From: a virus
Taxonomy: Duplodnaviria > Caudoviricetes
Reading direction: 5' to 3' (one strand)
Length of the DNA: 28,107 nt
IMG/VR virus record: IMGVR_UViG_3300025270_000064
Coordinates: 1 to 28,107 of that record
Position 1 is the first letter of the stretch. Every line of letters starts with the position of its first letter. The position numbers were made by a program, and so were the translations under genes. Under the pieces are notes generated by a model, which searched no databases, was not told the origin of the DNA, and saw only the letters and a list, made by a program, of their open reading frames with translations. This document shows positions 2,342-22,959 of the stretch, in pieces.

Positions 2342-3037
2342 TTAACGTATTAAAGGGAAACCCTGAATTATGCGTGAACCCATCTGTTTACCAGATTGGT
2401 ACTTCTCAGCAGTTCTTCTAAATTCCCTCATAAAAAATTCTCTCATTTCCAATTCACCTGCATCTTCTGCATACTTTGCCTTAACATAGTATACAACAGC
2501 ATTTGCCAGATATCTTGGTATATCCAACTCATCAGTCTCAGAATCTAATGCATTTACATTATAATATAATGATGGAGTTTCTTCAAATGCTTGCTGAACA
2601 GTAGAACTATCACTGCATTTAGTATACAAAGTAATATATCCTGTACCAGCTGCTTTGACTTTATGCAATCCATTCCACTTACCAGCACTTCTTAATACTA
2701 TATAGCTTCCATCACTTAAACTTTCAGGAGAGGCAGAATAATCATTATCTCCCTGATCTATAAGTTTAAGTAGACCATCAGTTGATACATATGTATCTAT
2801 TTGAGTATCTACTTTATCAGTCTCATTTATGAAATAATTAGGACTGTGTACGTATTGTATCTCCAGGCCATCAGCTACACTTGCTGTAGGGCTTTTCCAT
2901 AGCAAAGCACCAATAACACTAATATCATTCAGTGCAGGCTGCGAAAGGGTCTGCCCACCAGAAAATGTCCAATCCTTCTGGACAACAGCAAGCTTACCCC
3001 CTTTTACATAATATGCATATTCCTTACTAGTTGGCAT
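2342..3037 (-). CDS. Putative head-tail adaptor / tail ring protein, C-terminal-type part with inserted domain
   Basis: Start at MPTSK (3037) or the track's ATG 3043. The C-terminus DELDIPRYLANAVVYYVKAKYAEDAGELEMREFFMREFRR resembles the helical end of podophage adaptor proteins; lies in the structural operon. Confidence 0.55.
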   Translation of the reverse strand: MPTSKEYAYYVKGGKLAVVQKDWTFSGGQTLSQPALNDISVIGALLWKSPTASVADGLEIQYVHSPNYFINETDKVDTQIDTYVSTDGLLKLIDQGDNDYSASPESLSDGSYIVLRSAGKWNGLHKVKAAGTGYITLYTKCSDSSTVQQAFEETPSLYYNVNALDSETDELDIPRYLANAVVYYVKAKYAEDAGELEMREFFMREFRRTAEKYQSGKQMGSRIIQGFPLIR

Positions 3038-3308
3038 CAGCATCCTTCCTGATCGGTTCGCCTATCATTCTTGGTATAGATCTATACTCACTGTCAGCAT
3101 TAAGATGATTAAGGCACCTTATATCCAATACCTTGATCATATCATGTGGAAAGTCATAGAACCTCTGATTCTCGGTTATATCAAACCTTTCCGTATTGAT
3201 ATGGGTTTCGGAGATAGTATTCATCTCTTCGAGAGCGTCTTTGATATATGCTACAGCTCTCCCAGTGTCAGAAACACCAACTCTTTCCATTATTTCTTGT
3301 ACTGTCAT
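3027..3308 (-). CDS. Putative adaptor protein, N-terminal-type part
   Basis: 93 aa; MTVQEIMERV...YIKDALEEM...ITENQRFYDFPHDMIKVLDIRC resembles the N-terminal helices and Y-x-L/F-P-x-D strand of adaptor proteins. Confidence 0.55.
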   Translation of the reverse strand: MTVQEIMERVGVSDTGRAVAYIKDALEEMNTISETHINTERFDITENQRFYDFPHDMIKVLDIRCLNHLNADSEYRSIPRMIGEPIRKDADAN

Positions 3309-3869: not shown

Positions 3870-6800
3870 TTATCTCCTGTATTGTTGTTGCTGCTGAGAT
3901 TGCGCCTGAGCAGCAATTGTTCTATTTATCATTTTTGAATTATTCTGAATATACTTAGTTATCTCATCTTGAGCCCAAACATAATACCTATCTGCCTGCT
4001 TTTCATAATGCTGTATATTCTGTACTGTTAAAGTAACTTCCTGTGTTTTATCAGATATCTCTGCCTGATACTTTTGCAGGTTAGCACTATATTCTTGTAA
4101 ATCTGTTGTCCTTTCAGCCTCCCACACACGTAGATCGCCTTCAAGATTTTGCTGATACTCTTGTACTTCAGTAGCTACTTTCAATTGATATTGTTGAAGT
4201 TCAGCAGAATACTTTTGAATCTTACTACTATTGTCAGCAATAACGTCTTCTATCTGTTTTGCTGCATTAGCAAGTGCAAGTGCTTGATCTTGAGCTTTAT
4301 TAAACTTATCAACATCAGTAGCTTGAGCTGATTCTTGCTCTGCATCTGCTCTATCTAATTGAGCTTGAGTTAAAACTTTCTGTAAATCTGAGTTATGTTT
4401 CGCTATTTCAGCTTGTATATTTGCTTGATATCTGACGTTTTCCTTATTGAATTCATTTAACTCATTCTGAATATCAGCCTGGAAAACTGCTATATTATCT
4501 GATTCAGTTTTTTGCCATGCTTGATAAGCTGTATTTACTTCCATTTGATATCTAGATATCTTTTGTGTGTACTCTTGTATCTCTTTACTAATATTAGCTT
4601 GATATGTGGCAGTTTCTGCTTGATATAGTGAAATTTTTCTTTGATTATCATTTACAACAGCCTGCATGTCATTAACACCATTCTGTAATTGTCTCTGTAA
4701 ATCCCTATCTTCATCAGTAGTAGCGGCTTGTAAGTCAGATTGAGCTTGAGCAAGATTAACTTGATTGGCAATCTGAATTTCCTGCATAGATTCCTGAATA
4801 GCAGATTGATAAGCAATATTTTCTTTATTGAACTCATTTAGTTCATTCTGTATATCGCTTCCATATTTCTGTAAGTCTGTTGTTCTCTCTGCTTGCCAAA
4901 CCTGTATATCACCAGCAAGATTTTGTTGATATTGTTGTACTTCTTTATTAATTGTTGCTTGGTATGTTTGAACTTCAGCTTGATACTTTTGAATTTTACG
5001 TGCTTCATGTGCGTCTAATAATTGTGCTTCTTGTAAGTATTCTTGCAGTATAGCTTGATACTTGGCATTTTCCTTATTGAACTCATTCAATTCATTTTGT
5101 ATATCACTGCCATACTTTTGCAAATCTGTCTGTCTTTCCGTCTGCCAGACTTGTATATCACCTTGAAGATTCTGTTGATATTCTTGAACTTGCTTATTCA
5201 CATCTTCACTGTATGTTTGAACTTCTGCTTGATATTTCTGTATCTTGCGAGCTTCATTTTGATCAAGCAACTGTGCTTCTTGTACATATTCTTGTAAGAT
5301 AGCTTGATATTTAACATTATCCTTGTTGAATTCATTTAGTTCATTTTGAATATCACTCGCATATTTTTGCAGATCAGTTTGCCTTTCTGCCTGCCATACT
5401 TGTATATCTCCAGCCAAATTTTGCTGGTACTCCTGTACCTCCTTGTTAACTACTGCCTGATATGTACCAACTTCTGCTTGATAAAGTGCAACCTTTCTAT
5501 TATTGTCCTGAACAATAGCCTGCATATCATTAGTACCATTTTGCAGCTGTCTTTGTTGATCTCTATCTTTATTGGTTGTTGCAAGCTGAAGATCGGATTG
5601 TGCTTTTGCAAGATTAACTCCATTAGCAACTTGAAGTTCTTGTATAGATTCTTGTATAGCAGACTGATACGCTATATTCTCCTTATTAAACTCATTTAAT
5701 TCGTTTTGAATATCACTTGCATACTTTTGTAAATCAGTCTGTCGTTCTGCTTCCCAAACTCTTAAATCCCCTTCAAGATTCTGTTGATATTCTTGAACTT
5801 CTTTAGCCACATCAGCTTGATATTTACTAATATTTGCCTGATATACTTGCAATTCAAGTGTATAATCTTGTATAGATGCCTGTAATGTTTGAGTAGCATT
5901 CTGAATATTAACATTCGTTGAAAGTTGCATTTGCTGTATAGCAGCTGTAGTTGATTGCTGCATTTTAGCAATAGATGCAGATGTGGACTGTTGCATTTTA
6001 GATATAGATGCGTTTACGTCATTAGACGCATTAGCAATAGAAGCTTGTACTAATGTTTGCATAGATGCATTATTAGTTGAGACATCATTAGCAGCATTTG
6101 CAATAGATGCTTGAGTACCATCGTTTGCATTTGATATAGCTACTTGAGTAGCTTGTCTAGCATCTTCAATAGTTGCCTGCATAGCAGCAGTTGAACTCTG
6201 CACTTCTGCTTGAAATGCACTTATATAAGAATTAATTTTTTGTATTTGAGCAGATGCTAATTCAACATCTTCCTCTCCCTCTATAAAATGTCCTATAGTA
6301 GACCACCATTGGTCTACCTCTAGTTGGTCAGCATGAACATCTATAGTATTATCAGTATCTAATATAGATACATCTGTTACTTCATCTCCATCTCCTCCAA
6401 CAGTAGGTTTTGTATAAGCAGATGCCGTTGAAGCCGTTGCGCTTGAAGCAGATGCATCGCCTGGAGCATCTGTATCTGACGTACCAGCAGCATCTGTTGG
6501 GCCATGTGTAATAGAATCAACAGCTTGAGTAATAGCATCTTGAGCTGCACTTACAGCATTACCAACTGAAGCATTTGAATATGAAATTGTTGGACTAGGA
6601 GGAGGAACAGGAGAAATAGCAGAAATAGATAAATCTGAAATCGTAGGTGTAGTCCCTAACGCAAGAACTGGCTTTGTATAGCCTGGAGCACTTCCAGTAT
6701 AAGTACTCGATGCAGCAACAGTTGCAGTTGTAAAAACAGGAGCACTAGCATCTAATGCAGAATCTATACTAGTAAAAGTTACAGATGTCAAAGATGGGAC

Positions 6801-8075
6801 TGCTGGAACTACTGCCGATATACTTAAATCTGAAATTGTAGGAGCTGCCCCCAATGCAATGACTGGTTTAGTATATGTCGGAGCGAAACTAGAAGGATCT
6901 GCAATAACTTGAGCAGATATTGACGGAACTGTTGGTACTACAGAAGTAATAGACAAATCTGAAATTGTTGGGGCAGCTTCTAATGATAATACAGGTTTAA
7001 TATATGTTGGAGCAAAGCTAGAGGGATCAGCAACAACCTGTGCAGATATTGATGGAACTGATGGAGGTACAGCACTAATACTCAAGTCAGATATTGTTGG
7101 AGCCGCTCCTAAAGCTACTACTGGTTTACTATAAGCAGGTGCTGATCCTGTATATACGCTAGATGCAGACAAAGTTGCAGTTGAGATTGTAGGCTTAACC
7201 ACATCTAAAGCGGTATCTACACTAGTAAAAGTAACAGACGTTAAAGATGGTACTGAAGGAGAAACAGATGTTAACGATAACACACCTGGATCACTGTCAC
7301 CAAATGGATTTCTATCCTCACTTTCATTAAAAAAATCTTCAAAAGATATTTGAGTTGGATGTCCTGGCTTTGTATAGCCTGGAACATCACCACTTATATC
7401 AGCTTTTGATACACTAGCTACTGTTATTGCCCCAACAGTAGTCGCACTTGCGTCTGCATTAGTAGCATCTGAATATGAAACTGTACTTATTGACGGTACA
7501 GCAGGTGGTACAGCAGAAACTGATAAATCAGAAATAGTAGGAGCTGCACCTAGTGAAGGAGCAACTGGCACTATAGGGGAGGACCAACTTGGAACAGTGC
7601 CTGTAGCCAGTTTTGCAAATTCCTGAGCAGATGCATGAAAAATAACTGCATTCCTTAAATCACAGTCATCATCTATCTGAGAATAATCCACATAATACAC
7701 ATACCCATCATTGCTTCCACCTGAAGAAGGATCTGGTTTTATGAATACCTTTCCCTGGGCATGATAGTATTTAGGATATAAATTAGTCGCTTTATGTAAA
7801 CTTGCACTATCATCAATCCACTTGCTCATACTGAATGGCACTTCAGAAGCAGGATAACCCTCCCTCTCAACTGCAAGCACACTATCAGCAGTTTGAACAT
7901 CGTATCCATTTGCATCTTGAATAGCTGAAGATTGTGAAGAAGCAAACCAAAGCAAATCTTTAGGAATGCTTGAAGCTATAAATCTTTGAGCAGAAACAAT
8001 AAAATCATCTGAAGCACCGTGTGCGGTTACTCCAGTTATTGAAACTATCTCAACTGATATGTTTGTTGTAGCCAT
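3870..8075 (-). CDS. 1401-aa virion protein: adaptor-like N-domain, six Pro/Ser/Thr-rich repeats, central turn, six Gln/Tyr-rich helical repeats
   Basis: Long ORF; repeats APTISDLS..VP..PS....YxKP and YxSDIQNELNEFNKEN...EYQQNLxGDxxVWxxERxTDLQK are directly visible. Confidence 0.85.
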   Translation of the reverse strand: MATTNISVEIVSITGVTAHGASDDFIVSAQRFIASSIPKDLLWFASSQSSAIQDANGYDVQTADSVLAVEREGYPASEVPFSMSKWIDDSASLHKATNLYPKYYHAQGKVFIKPDPSSGGSNDGYVYYVDYSQIDDDCDLRNAVIFHASAQEFAKLATGTVPSWSSPIVPVAPSLGAAPTISDLSVSAVPPAVPSISTVSYSDATNADASATTVGAITVASVSKADISGDVPGYTKPGHPTQISFEDFFNESEDRNPFGDSDPGVLSLTSVSPSVPSLTSVTFTSVDTALDVVKPTISTATLSASSVYTGSAPAYSKPVVALGAAPTISDLSISAVPPSVPSISAQVVADPSSFAPTYIKPVLSLEAAPTISDLSITSVVPTVPSISAQVIADPSSFAPTYTKPVIALGAAPTISDLSISAVVPAVPSLTSVTFTSIDSALDASAPVFTTATVAASSTYTGSAPGYTKPVLALGTTPTISDLSISAISPVPPPSPTISYSNASVGNAVSAAQDAITQAVDSITHGPTDAAGTSDTDAPGDASASSATASTASAYTKPTVGGDGDEVTDVSILDTDNTIDVHADQLEVDQWWSTIGHFIEGEEDVELASAQIQKINSYISAFQAEVQSSTAAMQATIEDARQATQVAISNANDGTQASIANAANDVSTNNASMQTLVQASIANASNDVNASISKMQQSTSASIAKMQQSTTAAIQQMQLSTNVNIQNATQTLQASIQDYTLELQVYQANISKYQADVAKEVQEYQQNLEGDLRVWEAERQTDLQKYASDIQNELNEFNKENIAYQSAIQESIQELQVANGVNLAKAQSDLQLATTNKDRDQQRQLQNGTNDMQAIVQDNNRKVALYQAEVGTYQAVVNKEVQEYQQNLAGDIQVWQAERQTDLQKYASDIQNELNEFNKDNVKYQAILQEYVQEAQLLDQNEARKIQKYQAEVQTYSEDVNKQVQEYQQNLQGDIQVWQTERQTDLQKYGSDIQNELNEFNKENAKYQAILQEYLQEAQLLDAHEARKIQKYQAEVQTYQATINKEVQQYQQNLAGDIQVWQAERTTDLQKYGSDIQNELNEFNKENIAYQSAIQESMQEIQIANQVNLAQAQSDLQAATTDEDRDLQRQLQNGVNDMQAVVNDNQRKISLYQAETATYQANISKEIQEYTQKISRYQMEVNTAYQAWQKTESDNIAVFQADIQNELNEFNKENVRYQANIQAEIAKHNSDLQKVLTQAQLDRADAEQESAQATDVDKFNKAQDQALALANAAKQIEDVIADNSSKIQKYSAELQQYQLKVATEVQEYQQNLEGDLRVWEAERTTDLQEYSANLQKYQAEISDKTQEVTLTVQNIQHYEKQADRYYVWAQDEITKYIQNNSKMINRTIAAQAQSQQQQQYRR
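4090..6214 (-). repeat. Coding repeats, alpha-helical units of about 164, 120, 83, 83, 127 and 131 aa
   Basis: DIQNELNEFNKxN occurs five times; units counted by hand from the translation. Confidence 0.85.
6404..7570 (-). repeat. Coding repeats, Pro/Ser/Thr-rich units of about 66, 81, 43, 43, 65 and 88 aa
   Basis: Each unit ends in YxKP; five of six contain PTISDLS. Confidence 0.85.
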
Positions 8076-16324: not shown

Positions 16325-16684
16325 CTATAAATCTTTAATTGAATCTATAATTTTATCTTCTGCAGATACACCCATTTTTAATTTCTTGAAATATTGATGA
16401 ATAAGGGCATCTGCTTCCATACCTTCTTTATAAGTTTCATATTCACCAAAATGTTTTCCTTTTTCTATTGCACCCTTATAAGCACCTTCAAATGGCAAGT
16501 CTACTCCTCCCATCATGGTAGGGAACAAATACCATTTATCTGTTTCAGGGTCAACTTCCAGCCTAGTCTTAATATTCGATTCACCTGATCTTCCATCCTT
16601 TACCCATGAAACTTCGGGGAACAGTTTAAAATTTAAAGGCATAGTACCTTTATAATCAAATCCATACTTACTCTGCTTGGCCAT
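16325..16684 (-). CDS. Hypothetical phage protein (119 aa)
   Basis: ORF overlapping the terS end; no function recognised. Confidence 0.65.
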   Translation of the reverse strand: MAKQSKYGFDYKGTMPLNFKLFPEVSWVKDGRSGESNIKTRLEVDPETDKWYLFPTMMGGVDLPFEGAYKGAIEKGKHFGEYETYKEGMEADALIHQYFKKLKMGVSAEDKIIDSIKDL

Positions 16685-17396
16685 TTTCTATCTCTTTAGG
16701 TCTTTCAACTTCTTCCAGCTGCTCTTCACTAAACCCTTGAAACTGTATACCTGTCAACTGGGTAAGCTTGGCAGCAGACTTATCCTCAAGGTCTAAAATA
16801 TCAGATAACTTAAACAAAGCCTTTAACTTAGTGTCATCTTTCTCAGACTCATCAGCGACTGCCTTTATCCCTTCCAGGACAGTCTCATCGGTGATGCCTA
16901 ATTTCTCTAAAACTGGTTCTAATTCTTTTTTCATAGCTTTCCTTATCCTGGTACATTTTATCAATTCTGTACTTCTGAAGTTAGCATAGTGTGGATCATT
17001 AGTGGGAAATGCTTTTATATAAGCTTCTACTGGTTTCAATCCTGCAGCCACGTATTCAACAAACAACATTTCGTACTTATTAAGCTTCTCCCTGGTATCT
17101 GTCTTTGAATTTAAGCCGCTTATTGTATAGATGTTCTCCCGTCTAGACGTATCCATGGGAGCACTTACTGGATAAGTTCCTGTGCAAGTACGATAGTAAT
17201 GCACGATTCTCTTTTTGCCTTTTGGTTTGACAAGATTCCCCTTTTTGAGGACTTGTATATAACAGCCATCATCCGCCTTAACCCAATCCCCTTCTTCTGA
17301 CTCTCTCCAATCAGAAACGGGGTGGATGTCACTGGGCAACTCGTCTGCATCATCATACACGCAGTGAGGCTGGCGGTTTACATGATAGTGTCTCAT
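16668..17396 (-). CDS. terS: Terminase small subunit-like protein with extra N-terminal domain
   Basis: LNKYEMLFVEYVAAGLKPVEAYIKAF HTH and GITDETVLEGIKAVA...KLKALFKLSDIL oligomerisation helices; upstream of terL. Confidence 0.65.
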   Translation of the reverse strand: MRHYHVNRQPHCVYDDADELPSDIHPVSDWRESEEGDWVKADDGCYIQVLKKGNLVKPKGKKRIVHYYRTCTGTYPVSAPMDTSRRENIYTISGLNSKTDTREKLNKYEMLFVEYVAAGLKPVEAYIKAFPTNDPHYANFRSTELIKCTRIRKAMKKELEPVLEKLGITDETVLEGIKAVADESEKDDTKLKALFKLSDILDLEDKSAAKLTQLTGIQFQGFSEEQLEEVERPKEIENGQAE

Positions 17397-17415: not shown

Positions 17416-17580
17416 TTAAGTATATGGACTCATTTTAGAAAGTCTTTTGTCTTTCAACAGTTGACACGGTACACACAGGCCATTAACATGAATAAAAACC
17501 TCTAGTTCCGTTTTGTGACAGTTGAAACATTTTATATATGACTTCCCCTGAGAAGGATTTACCAACTTTTTGGATTTCAT
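17416..17580 (-). CDS. 54-aa zinc-finger protein (CFNC...CVPC)
   Basis: Not in the track: MKSKKLVNPSQGKSYIKCFNCHKTELEVFIHVNGLCVPCQLLKDKRLSKMSPYT; AAGGT SD-like sequence. Confidence 0.55.
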   Translation of the reverse strand: MKSKKLVNPSQGKSYIKCFNCHKTELEVFIHVNGLCVPCQLLKDKRLSKMSPYT

Positions 17581-17808
17581 GCCCTACCTTTCGTCAAAGC
17601 CAGTACCATTCATAGTCTGACTATTGTCTGTCCATACCTTGAGTTATAGTAAGGATTGTTGCGGCAATATCGGAGAAAATTCGAGGGTAGTATATGCTTG
17701 TCTATTCAAGTTAACCCCTTGTAATCCGACTTCTGACCCTTAAGGCAGTACTAATGCTAGGGTACCTTCTGGGTGATTCTTTTGTCTTTGTTGACATCTG
17801 ATTGCCTA
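17581..17808 (-). ncRNA. ~230-nt structured leader of the packaging/structural arm
   Basis: No sizeable ORF between the promoter and the first gene; stems ACCCU/AGGGU with inner GCA/UGC, UCCUUAC/GUAUGGA, CUACC/GGUAG over the SD. Confidence 0.4.
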
Positions 17809-17813
17809 CTGAA

Positions 17814-17842
17814 AATATATTACGAACAACTTTTTAAGGCAA
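17814..17842 (-). promoter_or_regulatory. Sigma70-like promoter for the leftward arm
   Basis: TTGCCT-17 nt-TATATT. Confidence 0.55.
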
Positions 17843-17985
17843 GTTTTAAAAATTGTGGCATTTTAGTGTGCGGTCTTATCACTAGCCCCTACCCCTTACA
17901 TAAGGGTTTTCGCTATCGCTTTTTCGTTATTTTTGATTTGTATTAATTGGTTTTTCGTCACATTCTAAAAGACTAGGAGGTCTAC

Positions 17986-18276
17986 ATGGATGAACTATTA
18001 GCATTACTTAGAGCTGGTGCTACAATGGCAGGACTTGAAGTAATACGCGTCATGAAACCTGAAGACTTTGAGCTTCGAGTTAAATGCGGTATCATGGATA
18101 TGGAAATACATGAAGCAGCCACATTGCGTACCAAGTTAGCTGGTTTAGCTGACTCAATTGCAAATTGTACGCAAGATCGCACTAAAAAAGGTGACTGGCA
18201 GAATGTTGCTTGGAACCTTGACCCTAATAAAGGTAGTGGTGGTCGTAAAGTATCCAGATCATTTGCTGGATATTAA
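17986..18276 (+). CDS. Hypothetical protein (96 aa), first gene of the rightward arm
   Basis: AGGAGGT SD; followed by a hairpin. Confidence 0.75.
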   Translation: MDELLALLRAGATMAGLEVIRVMKPEDFELRVKCGIMDMEIHEAATLRTKLAGLADSIANCTQDRTKKGDWQNVAWNLDPNKGSGGRKVSRSFAGY

Positions 18277-18286
18277 ATGCTAACCT

Positions 18287-18314
18287 TAAAGGGGGTATTA
18301 ATTTATCCCCTTTA
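18287..18314 (+). terminator. Intrinsic terminator-like hairpin
   Basis: UAAAGGGGGUA-UUAAUU-UAUCCCCUUUA. Confidence 0.6.
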
Positions 18315-18316
18315 TA

Positions 18317-19133
18317 ACCTGTATTGTTGTTGTTTGTACCATAGATGAGTCTATACCAGACAGCATGAGCCAGTAAGCAGACCATTGGTAGTCATGTCAT
18401 AGCTTATAGGTATATATATGCGGTAACTTATACCAAACTGGACTAAGCCAGTATAAATAGATGTTAAGCTTAGTGCGTTAGTACAAATGTACTAGATCAT
18501 ACTCATAGTTATACTATGATTATCTTGGACGAGGTAGTCATAGTTGTATGATATCTCTTCTTGTACTTGTCACCAGCAAATATGGTTGAGATAAAGTATT
18601 AACAGTCTAGTAAGTGTGGTGCTTATTAGGTTGCAGTGAAAGTCTGTACTCTGAGTGATGGCGGGATAAACACGACAATGTTTGCCCCTGCAAATGTACA
18701 AAAGCATGCTGCATGGTTGCCACCTAGCAACACAGGACATGTAGATATGTAAGTAGGTACAGTGCCTGTCATCATTACAGTTTCACTCTTACAAAGGATC
18801 ACCTTGACGTGGTGTAAGAGCTTTTAACTAACGATCCAAAGCGTCCTCCTCTTGGGACATTAAAGTACAAGTGACATATTCTAGTGTAAGTCAATTAAAT
18901 TGCTCTAGATGAGTTGAGGATAACTATCTCGTAAAATAAGTGTTTCTACAAGTCCGTCTCGTTTAGCGGGTAGCTGCAGTAGATACATCGTGCTTTGATC
19001 AAGTTTCTGGAATTAATTACTCTGGATTTAACGGTGGGCGATGAGGGATTTAATCACCCAGAGACGTTGGAAGGACGTTGGTACAGTTGATACAGCTAAG
19101 ATGCCTACACTGTAATACTTTAATCATGTATCT
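18317..19133 (+). ncRNA. ~820-nt non-coding region of consecutive structured RNA modules
   Basis: No ORF of 60 aa or more; more than 15 helices found by eye, many with G-U pairs that only work on the + strand. Confidence 0.65.
18786..18837 (+). ncRNA. Minimal HDV-like (theta-type) ribozyme fold, variant
   Basis: P1 CUCUUAC/GUAAGAG, J1/2 AAA, P2 GGAUC/GAUCC, P3 ACC/GGU, L3 UUGACGU, no P4, J4/2 CUAAC. Confidence 0.55.
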
Positions 19134-19150
19134 TTAGAAGGGAGATTGAC

Positions 19151-19309
19151 ATGAAAGATTGTGAACATAGAATATTTCATATGTCCTGTACTGTATGTTG
19201 GTATAAGATGGCCAAAGGTGTATTTAAGAGATCATCTAAACAATCTAATACTAGTGGTTATGAATTTGTGATAAATGATCCAGATGATGGTAGTTGGAAG
19301 GGGAGATAG
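19151..19309 (+). CDS. 52-aa CxH/CxxC metal-binding protein
   Basis: Not in the track: MKDCEHRIFHMSCTVCWYKMAKG...WKGR; AAGGGAG SD. Confidence 0.65.
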   Translation: MKDCEHRIFHMSCTVCWYKMAKGVFKRSSKQSNTSGYEFVINDPDDGSWKGR

Positions 19310-19311
19310 GT

Positions 19312-19482
19312 ATGGATGATCGAAATGAACAATATCTTGGAGTACACTGGAGTGAAATATATACTGAATGCAAAGAATGTAAAGGCGATGGTAATGATGG
19401 ACATTGTAAGTCATGTGATGGTGAAGGATTAGTATTAGATAAAGACGGTAAGGATTATAAATACTATAAAGGAGGTGAATAA
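19312..19482 (+). CDS. 56-aa protein with DnaJ-type CxxCxGxG zinc finger
   Basis: CKECKGDG...CKSCDGEG; start re-called to ATG 19312 after GGGAG. Confidence 0.7.
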   Translation: MDDRNEQYLGVHWSEIYTECKECKGDGNDGHCKSCDGEGLVLDKDGKDYKYYKGGE

Positions 19483-20015
19483 TGGCTGACAATAGTAAGG
19501 TTGATTTATTATTAAGTCAATTCCCAGTGATTACTCTCAATAGTGGAGTAACAATATGTAATTTCTCATCATTTCATAGTTATTGGTTAAGAACTGACGA
19601 GCACGACACAGTGGGTGAGGTATTACACGGTTGCACCAAGGCAGTAGCTGATAACCATAAGCTTATTACTGAAGAGGTATTAACACCTAGATGGTCAGGA
19701 TTTAGAGTTGAACAGACTAAAGATGCTGATAAACCATTCTTTGAGATGTATGAGCTTGATAGAGATTATTCTGATTGGTTAGATGTAGAGCTGACTCTAT
19801 CTATTGACCTGCATACCATGCAAGATTTACATGTATTGGCTAAAATGAAGGACTTAGATGTAATATTAGTTCCATATCCTATTCAATCTATCTTGAATGA
19901 GAGATGGAGAATAGACAGTAAAAGCTATACGATATGGTGCAAGAGTAGGACTTGTAGAAAGATAGACCCAAGAGATATTACTCAAGGTGTATATTCTGAC
20001 AGGTTCTGTGTATAA
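19482..20015 (+). CDS. Hypothetical protein (177 aa)
   Basis: GGAGGT SD, TAATG coupling. Confidence 0.75.
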   Translation: MADNSKVDLLLSQFPVITLNSGVTICNFSSFHSYWLRTDEHDTVGEVLHGCTKAVADNHKLITEEVLTPRWSGFRVEQTKDADKPFFEMYELDRDYSDWLDVELTLSIDLHTMQDLHVLAKMKDLDVILVPYPIQSILNERWRIDSKSYTIWCKSRTCRKIDPRDITQGVYSDRFCV

Positions 20016-20016
20016 T

Positions 20017-20110
20017 ATAGGCTGCTTGAGGGATGCTCCTTCACCTCTGATTAAACTGAGCGACCTGATGTAACATGCTGTTGAAGGGTCAAATAATTGA
20101 GGCAGTCTAT
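20017..20110 (+). ncRNA. Multi-branch structured RNA (module A)
   Basis: 11-bp closing helix AUAGGCUGCUU/AGGCAGUCUAU with three inner stems. Confidence 0.55.
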
Positions 20111-20132
20111 TTAATTTAAAGGAGTACTTGAA

Positions 20133-20288
20133 GTGGGAAAAGAACTACAAAGTAAACATAGAAAGCTGAGTAAAAGAATGACTCAGAAACAATTGAAATC
20201 AAGACTTGAAAAAATCAAGAAAAGAAGGGAGAAATCAGATTATGACAATAATGGCGTTTATGAAAAAACATCTAGTTCTACCAGGTGA
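20133..20288 (+). CDS. 51-aa basic protein
   Basis: GTG start after AAGGAG; MGKELQSKHRKLSKRMTQKQLKSRLEKIKKRREK... Confidence 0.5.
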   Translation: MGKELQSKHRKLSKRMTQKQLKSRLEKIKKRREKSDYDNNGVYEKTSSSTR

Positions 20289-20400
20289 GTCTTTTATTCA
20301 GGAATATAAAAGTGTATCTCCTAAAGGAAGAGAAGAGTTGAAAGAATACGCACGTGAAGAGATGGAACATAAGGGTATTGAGATAGACGATGATAAATAG
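20242..20400 (+). CDS. Hypothetical protein (52 aa)
   Basis: Start re-called to MTIMAFMKK after AGGGAG. Confidence 0.6.
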   Translation: MTIMAFMKKHLVLPGESFIQEYKSVSPKGREELKEYAREEMEHKGIEIDDDK

Positions 20401-20412
20401 TATTTATTTATA

Positions 20413-20908
20413 AAGACAGCATCCCTCTATATGAGGTCTGTGGAAGTCGGACACAGGTCAGTTGATTTTAGAAACTACTGTGATGAAAATATATGCTGTC
20501 TTATTTGAGTAGTATGTAAGTACCTAACAATCTCTACGAGATGGGGATAGGGTACCATTCAAGTAGAAACCTTTGATAGGGTTTAAAACAAACAGATGTA
20601 CAAATGTATGATGTTTGTCTACATATATTGAATGGACGGTAGTAAAAAAAACACATAGTCTTACTATATCACGCTGTCATGTAGGTTGGATTGACGGATC
20701 CTTCACTTGTGAATCCTACCATATTACTCAATCAATGGGGAGATATATAGGGGCGAGCGCATAGGAAATTTGGAATAGCCAGTAGCACCTTCCAAATATT
20801 TCCCCACAAATTTAAGGGATTAAGTCTGTCAGCATCTGCTTACTCCCTTACCCATAATGTGGTTTTCCACCATAAGTGGATGCTGATAACTTTAACAAAA
20901 AGGGAGTA
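20413..20908 (+). ncRNA. Four back-to-back structured RNA modules (20413-20502, 20505-20731, 20736-20806, 20813-20908)
   Basis: Closing helices AAGACAGCAU/AUGCUGUCUU, UUGAGUAGUAUG/CAUAUUACUCAA, UGGGGAGAUA/UAUUUCCCCA, UAAGGGA/UCCCUUA, separated by 2-6 nt. Confidence 0.7.
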
Positions 20909-20912
20909 TTTC

Positions 20913-21098
20913 ATGAGTAAACGAGCATTAGCTGAATACATTAGGAAATGTATAAAAGAAGCTAAAGATACAGATATGGTTATACCATATAATGGAGTTT
21001 TACCAGACGTTGATTGTTATGAATTTATGTCTAACAATGAAGAATATTGTAATACGAAAATGGAAGAGGGTTGGAAAGTAATAAGAGGAGATAGTTAA
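20913..21098 (+). CDS. Hypothetical protein (61 aa)
   Basis: Start re-called to MSKRALAEY after AAGGGAG. Confidence 0.65.
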   Translation: MSKRALAEYIRKCIKEAKDTDMVIPYNGVLPDVDCYEFMSNNEEYCNTKMEEGWKVIRGDS

Positions 21099-22851: not shown

Positions 22852-22860
22852 TAAGGCATG

Positions 22861-22890
22861 GGAGTAGGCTGATTATTCTAGCTTACTCCC
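22861..22890 (+). terminator. Hairpin between the early genes and the recombination module
   Basis: GGGAGUAGGCU ... AGCUUACUCCC (11 bp); lacks a U-tract. Confidence 0.5.
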
Positions 22891-22959
22891 TCGCTAAATC
22901 GTAGATTTATGGTCGATCTTTTGACTATTTATCTCTCAAAATAGAAGGAGGAGGATTTA

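Follow-up and report, generated by a model that had tools for sequence, protein, structure and literature searches.

An array of conserved folded RNAs headed by a pistol ribozyme match occupies an exchangeable early-region slot in a group of tailed viruses

The stretch of DNA analysed here, hereafter the window, is a 28.1-kb virus record (IMG/VR record IMGVR_UViG_3300025270_000064, Caudoviricetes; 28,107 nucleotides (nt)) in which the late genes (TerS, TerL, portal and capsid) lie on the minus strand and the early and replication genes, including those for Sak4-like, primase-helicase and Gam-like proteins, on the plus strand. The head of the plus-strand early block is an RNA array, contained in three non-coding blocks (18277-19150, 20016-20132 and 20401-20912; ~1.5 kb in total) between small plus-strand open reading frames (ORFs). 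All array elements described below are on the plus strand. An original prediction, made from the window sequence alone, placed here about 1.4 kb of separately folded non-coding RNAs in nine modules, which sum to 1195 nt. Compensating changes across related phages bear out the array itself, whereas three of the nine module boundaries are wrong, and a pistol ribozyme (18437-18501), a conserved stretch (18843-18980) and a promoter-like motif (18411-18438) were overlooked. The modules are indeed not repeats of one another, and a repeat search identified no repeat array. As judged by sequence comparison, the array is real and belongs to a known kind of locus that here carries several uncatalogued RNA families.

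Folding energy was evaluated against dinucleotide shuffles on both strands for all nine modules. On the plus strand, z-scores are -3.6 for 18496-18552, -3.55 for 20505-20731, -2.4 for 18560-18871, -2.2 for 20017-20110, -1.85 for 20813-20908 and -1.4 for 18317-18411; the plus and minus values are -2.5 and -3.3 for 20413-20502, -1.55 and -1.8 for 20736-20806, and -0.3 and -1.8 for 18981-19133. Thus, five of the nine modules reach -2.2 or lower and the plus strand scores better in six. Blind 100-nt windows across the non-coding blocks show a mean z of -1.11 on the plus strand against -0.24 on the minus strand (n=20 overlapping windows, Wilcoxon p=0.008), but there is no clear excess over coding plus-strand windows (-0.44 to -0.51, p=0.086), which weighs against selected folding, so that energy, only modestly better than in shuffles, makes a weak case by itself. 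The decisive evidence is the comparison with related phages, for which 80 loci with TerS relatives (43-100% identity), 31 viral loci reached through two early proteins, 37 metagenome loci reached through the first rightward ORF, and pattern matches were collected. Each RNA module was then searched iteratively over 526 loci, which are denoted by L numbers.

The array appears to start with a TATA-rich stretch (18411-18438) that ends in a conserved 14-nt motif (18425-18438), of which the window has one exact copy. Within 45 TerS upstream regions the motif has 22 distinct contexts, and it also occurs in 79 viral stretches; altogether, 155 sites collapse to 75 distinct loci, with TerS no more than 1.6 kb away in 48 of the 61 testable ones. 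An ORF starts 10-54 nt 3' of the motif in 15 of the 75 loci, and the first kilobase after it is at a median 53% non-coding (n=63) compared to 14% in 21 gene windows, reaching at least 40% in 47 of the 63 loci. From this position and context, we infer that the motif is the promoter or the transcription start of the cassette. A sigma-70 scan of the window gave 14 sites against 16.7 expected, and the only terminator called is outside the array. In four relatives (L024, L498, L499 and L501), the 60 nt that directly follow the motif contain a different small hairpin module in place of the window's pistol, a candidate for another element that forms a 5' end.

The element that follows is a pistol self-cleaving ribozyme (18437-18501; RF02679, 62.5 bits against a threshold of 34.5, E 2.4e-9). 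Helices P1, P2 and P3 and the P1-loop pseudoknot are all present, with covariation: 9 of 21 pairs are compensatory across six distinct aligned copies, a number reached by none of 500 shuffles. The pseudoknot is a perfect 7 base pairs (bp) in the window and, in six homologues, is 100% paired with five of its seven pairs compensatory; P2 is the weakest helix in the same homologues (78% paired). The core nucleotides A32, G33, G40, C41 and G42 (numbered after the available parts of PMC6154101 and PMC7027511) and the 2-nt junction can be read from the alignment. An A-U junction is shared by the window, L503, L522 and L462, whereas L524 and L080 have G-U; the cut is predicted between A18496 and U18497. 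In the portion of Harris et al. 2015 (PMC4604425) consulted, the G-U of the junction is only modestly conserved whereas its 2-nt length is strict. The A variant could nevertheless be slower in cleavage because, in the crystal structure as excerpted from PMC7027511, N2 of G53 is near G42 before the cut. Compared with the known pistols, as far as the same part of Harris et al. and RF02679 describe them, the helices, pseudoknot, 2-nt junction, core and phage context are the same; the differences are the A-U junction and the placement, before a large uncatalogued RNA and right where the transcript presumably begins. In six loci the pistol begins where the motif ends, and in L462 it begins 13 nt farther on. 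Of the eight pistol loci listed, six have the large RNA downstream of the pistol. Immediately after the predicted cut there is a long hairpin (18497-18552), with counterparts in L503, L524 and L526, that stands where relatives without a pistol have their first helix, which begins 2-11 nt after the motif (five examples). The suggestion that the array includes ribozymes is therefore correct for one element, by Rfam, and the statement that no known RNA class is present holds for the remaining modules, none of which matched Rfam 15: searches at E<=5 on the window and E<=10 on 18500-20920 returned the pistol and two chance matches only, and ARAGORN found 0 genes in the window. A hammerhead-like stretch was noticed by eye in L012 (~4075-4020, minus strand), where Rfam gave no match at the gathering score.

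The best supported of the uncatalogued elements is a large RNA of ~280 nt (18561-18838), represented by 22 distinct sequences, or 26 with remote members. It consists of a loop A (18570-18576) that kisses a loop B (18614-18621), a T-loop hairpin (18633-18647), a branched core (18655-18775) and a 3' H-type pseudoknot (18786-18838); the names T-loop-like hairpin and S-turn-like internal loop were assigned by eye and are what we take these motifs to be. The core has 40 pairs, 96% paired and 14 of them compensatory, in 21 of the 22 sequences (one near-duplicate was left out); the shuffles give 5.3 compensatory pairs and the slid controls no more than 4. In the 3' pseudoknot, 7 of 14 pairs are compensatory in 19 sequences, with 32 such cells against 10.5 in shuffles, and the covariation of the large RNA as a whole exceeds all 500 shuffles and all slid controls. 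A second loop-bulge pairing within the core is nearly invariant and was left out of the covariation count. In 12 chosen representatives, for which loop A was set by eye, the kissing loops form at least 5 complementary pairs in 11, and they switch together between pyrimidine-rich and purine-rich forms in four sequence classes. The mean energy of cognate loop pairs is -6.3 kcal/mol against -2.4 kcal/mol for 102 cross-class pairings, and the cognate pair is the best in 8 of 12 rows; in an automatic tally the control was weak, with 44 of 128 non-cognate pairs also reaching 5 bp. The remote members are L451, L462 and L031. A covariance model run on 100 sources retrieved the window, two divergent training members and a weak new match, L031 (E 0.19), which has the RNA in the same slot with complementary loops of its own, and a pattern scan of 119 stretches added no new family members.

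Known classes do not appear to account for the large RNA. The core resembles a cobalamin riboswitch by eye, and this candidate was rejected given that Rfam gives no match, the T-loop hairpin is outside the junction and the downstream neighbours vary. The GOLLD and ROOL covariance models match neither 18561-18838 nor the module at 20505-20731 at the same E-value limits, whereas the same library detects GOLLD in relatives at 179-186 bits. Packaging RNAs of the phi29 type occur in all members of their clade, in phages that lack a small terminase; TerS is present here and the large RNA is found in only part of the family, so that this assignment was dropped as well.

Downstream of the large RNA there is a second conserved unit of ~270 nt (18843-19115; 7 sequences, two insertions in the window lineage), in which 8 of 50 pairs are compensatory and which moves separately from the large RNA in L068 and L508. 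It replaces the claimed module 18981-19133, whose helix is not kept in relatives and has a probability of 0.0 in context. The claimed helix closing 18560-18871 fares no better, with a 3' strand that pairs downstream in relatives and again a probability of 0.0 in context, and 18317-18411, described as a module, is a variable-length spacer with no conserved fold (consensus energy -0.49 kcal/mol over 5 homologues). The four other predicted basal helices, those of the modules starting at 20017, 20413, 20505 and 20736, are upheld: most of their pair probabilities are 0.7-1.0, with compensatory changes in the last three and a helix kept in relatives in the first.

These four modules, like the second unit, are conserved folds on thinner data than the large RNA. 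The multi-branch RNA at 20017-20110, located before a ribosome-binding site (3 sequences, 4 of 22 pairs compensatory), and the small RNA at 20736-20806, which combines a variable basal helix with an invariant 24-nt core (one homologue, L007; 5 of 19 pairs compensatory in the 2 sequences), are thinly supported. The four-way-junction RNA at 20413-20502 has an A-rich joiner and a T-loop-like hairpin (20441-20447) that is invariant; 13 of its 23 pairs are compensatory in the six sequences, out of seven, that were aligned, a count made with no shuffle control, and the seventh member, in L215, is an independent model match (E 2.4e-10). A tRNA or tmRNA identity was rejected for this module because ARAGORN found 0 genes, Rfam gave no match and the order of the arms differs. 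Both this module and 20017-20110 often end just before a Shine-Dalgarno (SD) sequence. The five-way-junction RNA of ~230 nt (20505-20731) comes in three types with 56-60% identity that fold independently to the same layout, one of which occurs in phages with TerL only 29-30% identical; a 15-mer scan for this RNA returned mostly chance matches.

Public RNA runs, for which the evidence consists of contigs only, cover part of the array; the runs concerned are labelled seawater and marine metagenome. The single contig of run X4 that aligns to 10 kb covers 20529-20753, and among the 10 pieces of run X1 there is a whole 195-nt contig on 20525-20720. Of the 11 listed differences in an X1 contig over the five-way RNA, 4 are at unpaired positions, 5 keep pairs (with one compensatory pair) and 2 break pairs. 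These short contigs are a weak hint of a stable 230-nt RNA. The pistol and most of the large RNA lack RNA-run cover, which counts neither way.

The last module, 20813-20908, behaves as a cis element and is a candidate translation switch. It comprises an upstream SD-like strand (20813-20824), a 14-bp helix, an anti-SD (20839-20850) and the SD (20900-20908) of the ORF at 20913. Eleven sequences are available; the helix is 98% paired in the 7 that were aligned, and only 3 of its 14 pairs are compensatory, a value that 18-26 of 500 shuffles reach. Among nine homologues examined, the loop anti-SD pairs with the SD of the next gene over 6-10 bp in eight, and the upstream SD-like strand captures the anti-SD in the nascent RNA in eight. 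In the window, the modelled upstream hairpin has a probability of ~0.98 before the helix completes and 0.01 thereafter. We infer from this folding model a refolding switch in which the SD would pass from a free to a blockable state. SAM-II and SAM-V riboswitches also sequester the SD in a pseudoknot and are comparable in this respect, whereas an assignment of the module to SAM-II, SAM-V or preQ1 was rejected, with no Rfam match at E<=10. The leader of T4 gene 32, as described in part of PMC10690425, similarly places a pseudoknot-type element directly before a start codon. Unlike that leader and the SAM-II and SAM-V riboswitches, 20813-20908 has a 14-bp first helix, an upstream decoy SD and different downstream genes, and lacks an Rfam match. 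A comparable hairpin, with an SD-like strand paired to an anti-SD strand, is present at 22857-22893 of the window, 3' of a 330-aa gene. The prediction that every module is a free small RNA appears not to hold for 20813-20908 and is called into question by 20413-20502, which is often directly before a ribosome-binding site. The suggested roles of sponge and anti-defence decoy are conjectural.

Across relatives, the array appears to be a slot with exchangeable contents. An all-against-all comparison of slots gave 106 non-coding families, 43 of them in at least three loci, a count in which some sub-families overlap and which also takes in the tRNA and a few loci that lack a link to TerS. The modules occur in many combinations, which reinforces the predicted picture of independent folding units. 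Of the window's modules, those at 20413, 20736 and 20813 are the only ones present in L007, and the second unit is the only one in L068; L526 combines the pistol with the large RNA but lacks the second unit. What follows the large RNA, be it a gene or another RNA, varies from phage to phage. Known RNAs share the region: initiator-type tRNA-Met is found in 11 of 45 loci, GOLLD in L024, L070 and L497, and Rfam on 88 loci gives 16 tRNA, 3 GOLLD, 3 tmRNA-like and 3 pistol matches (some of the loci overlap). The tmRNA-like matches (L051 3734-3815, minus; L070 957-1032, minus; L467 4931-5013, plus; 76-83 nt, 55-56 bits as tmRNA) are shells that consist of the tRNA-like domain alone, with the G3-U70 pair and without a tag reading frame, and might be decoys for SmpB or alanyl-tRNA synthetase. 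L063 has an ARAGORN tRNA-like gene with a stop-reading anticodon (1743-1831, minus) adjoining tRNA-Met. More large uncatalogued modules are found 3' of the motif, including one of ~430 nt common to L051, L060, L063 and L453, and one of ~510 nt in L526 (~2640-3150), after the four-way junction; L021 and L023 also have shared modules.

TerS (16668-17396, minus; phrog_51, E 3.7e-7) opens the divergent late block and served as the family anchor. The first rightward ORF (17986-18276, plus; 96 aa) has relatives in 11 viral and 37 metagenome loci and no match in PHROG or Pfam; it is followed by a terminator-like hairpin (18288-18313, plus) with a short U-tail in the window and a longer T run in L012, which the terminator scan did not call although its 100-nt window has a z of -3.97. 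The divergent promoter gap between TerS and this ORF (17530-17960) has a conserved nucleotide sequence in the majority of TerS loci but shows no folding signal, and possibly contains operators, an origin or a packaging site. Two small Cys-rich ORFs (19151-19309 and 19312-19482, plus) are encoded between the RNA blocks, followed by a 177-aa ORF (19482-20015, plus) that belongs to no PHROG or Pfam family and whose homologues adjoin the same RNA modules in relatives. The predicted interleaving with tiny zinc-finger genes holds to the extent that two of five ORFs in the interval are Cys-rich; only the second of these has zinc-finger-like Pfam matches, weak and sub-threshold, and the best Pfam match in the interval (DnaJ CXXCXGXG, E 0.0017) is below its cut-off. 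Elsewhere, the window encodes a 1401-aa protein (3870-8075, minus) with Pro/Ser/Thr-rich repeats and a long Gln-rich, coiled-coil-like half that has no PHROG match, and the early regions of two complete relatives (L531 2527-4142, minus; L533 941-2471, plus) contain a ThiF (E1-like) gene adjoining a Prok-JAB gene, apparently a ubiquitin-like conjugation pair. Cultured phages include no nucleotide relative beyond chance, with the best TerL ~25% identical, and the search of assembled genome contigs for a host yielded none with TerS. A Rhodothermales metagenome-assembled genome was discarded as a host clue, the match being a single 25-residue capsid segment. The TATA spacing raised the possibility of an archaeal host, which was dismissed since the tRNA-Met and tmRNA-like domains of relatives are of bacterial type.

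In the general organization of such loci, the T4 tRNA cluster with its small stable RNAs and the early RNase III sites of T7 are precedents for an early polycistronic phage transcript that is cut into parts, from which the window differs in having no tRNA and no sequence likeness in cultured phages. The kind of locus is already known because GOLLD and ROOL are phage RNAs of unknown function near tRNA islands (RF02032; PMC5737381; bioRxiv 10.1101/2024.12.08.627333, each as available in part), similarly large and ornate, with pseudoknots and kissing loops, in the neighbourhood of tRNA-Met. The window RNAs differ from these in their size (70-280 nt), in matching neither model, and in constituting many exchangeable families among small ORFs. 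The Theta ribozymes at phage tRNAs are the closest worked example for trimming by the pistol: in the accessible part of PMC10879173, a small ribozyme is likewise proposed to mature a neighbouring phage RNA by its cut, but Theta is HDV-like and trims tRNA 3' ends whereas the pistol here would make the 5' end of a non-tRNA. Among the candidate RNA alignments that Fremin et al. 2023 (PMC10690425) built from IMG/VR, those covered contain 0 matches to the window sequence, and the others may include fragments of these motifs; the literature search found no description of such an array.

What the comparison of sequences shows is that the RNAs fold, that these folds are conserved and shuffled between phages, and that known RNAs share their slot. 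Given that a pistol and at least six uncatalogued folds are swapped for tRNA and GOLLD, the locus is likely a self-trimmed cassette of stable RNAs. The full reading, which we consider about evenly poised between right and wrong, is that of an exchangeable cassette on one early transcript, with a 5' end trimmed by the pistol, stable RNAs that act on host translation and at least one cis module. Transcription would start at the end of motif 18425-18438, and the pistol would remove ~60 nt, leaving a 5'-hydroxyl at U18497 and hence slower end-dependent decay, an effect of such ends described in the available part of bioRxiv 10.1101/2020.07.22.216051. The larger RNAs (18497-18838, 18843-19115 and 20413-20731) would be released by host or phage nucleases rather than by more ribozymes; a review (PMC6765202), in the part consulted, treats ribozyme processing of polycistronic transcripts in bacteria and phages as suggested and unproven. 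The RNAs that carry T-loops could mimic tRNA, as ligands or decoys of host proteins that associate with the ribosome or target tRNAs. In 20813-20908, the anti-SD would be hidden in the nascent hairpin and, after refolding, could block the next ribosome-binding site.

Several observations weigh against this reading. The motif matches no sigma-70 consensus in the promoter scan and, although present in three of five complete records, was not found in the other two. The window pistol has the A-U junction instead of the usual G-U and a P2 of only 3 bp, with which a downstream strand competes at a probability of 0.3; the helix at the cut site has a probability of 0.2 locally and 0.01 in long context. 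Hairpin A of the large RNA is weak in the window, where it is not part of the minimum-energy fold. The deepest X1 contig (depth 39.5) starts near 20420 and continues past 20504 into another sequence, so that 20413-20504 is not cut free in that run, and the other listed X1 pieces, at depths of 2.5-5.7, include ordinary genes. The decoy or ligand step draws on the neighbours and on T-loop shapes identified by eye. In two complete relatives, of whose 105 ORFs 87 were scanned, Pfam detected neither an RNA ligase nor an RNase or RNA-binding family. The more ambitious version, in which a promoter-anchored slot takes up dozens of unrelated RNA families, the ~280-nt RNA among them, swapped in the manner of accessory genes and used as RNA-only effectors of takeover or counter-defence behind a ribozyme-protected 5' end, seems unlikely, albeit conceivable.

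The alternative that survives best, tentative and itself rather doubtful, is that most modules, instead of being free RNAs, act in cis within the early mRNA, as stabilisers, nuclease sites or translation operators, and travel with small genes. The pairing of the 20813-20908 anti-SD with the next SD, the frequent location of the 20017 and 20413 modules just before an SD, and the uncut 3' side of 20413-20504 in the deep X1 contig all point in this direction; on the other hand, the elaboration of the large RNA goes far beyond what a leader would require, varied genes and RNAs follow it, the slot is shared with tRNA and GOLLD, and short contigs coincide with 20505-20731 in two RNA studies, if only as a weak hint. 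It is improbable that the large RNA, and perhaps 20505-20731, are RNA-only multimers held together by loop-loop pairing like GOLLD and ROOL, which form cages through kissing loops (bioRxiv 10.1101/2024.12.08.627333, in part). The covarying kissing loops and pseudoknot and the presence of GOLLD in the same region would fit such multimers, but Rfam gives no match to either family, the size is about half that of ROOL, loops A and B are adjacent and could pair within one molecule, and L024 and L497 hold both the large RNA and GOLLD; multimerization concerns assembly and not function and is compatible with the cassette. The proposal that the transcript is punctuated by new self-cleaving ribozymes, represented by one or more of the 3' pseudoknot (18786-18838), 20017-20110 and 20736-20806, is very improbable: their compact folds with invariant unpaired cores, and the discovery of new classes beside known ones (PMC6765202, in part), speak for it, whereas Rfam yields no ribozyme match for them at E<=10 and, according to the same part of that review, many such neighbours did not cleave. 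Finally, that the folds are neutral by-products of intergenic DNA or of recent shared descent is scarcely credible and largely refuted, since the compensatory changes in the core, pseudoknot and kissing loops are far above the slid controls, the five-way layout persists across diverged types and the pistol match is strong, even though the z-scores are not clearly better than those of coding DNA, relatedness can beat a shuffle control and 18317-18411 fails as a module.

Large phage RNAs such as GOLLD and ROOL and phage-linked ribozymes are known, mostly without a function. The slot described here amounts to a natural swap experiment, in which tRNA-Met, GOLLD, tag-less tmRNA-like shells, a pistol or uncatalogued folds take up one position. 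It provides alignments for at least six new candidate RNAs and suggests a role for the pistol that can be tested, namely to make the 5' end of a neighbouring RNA.

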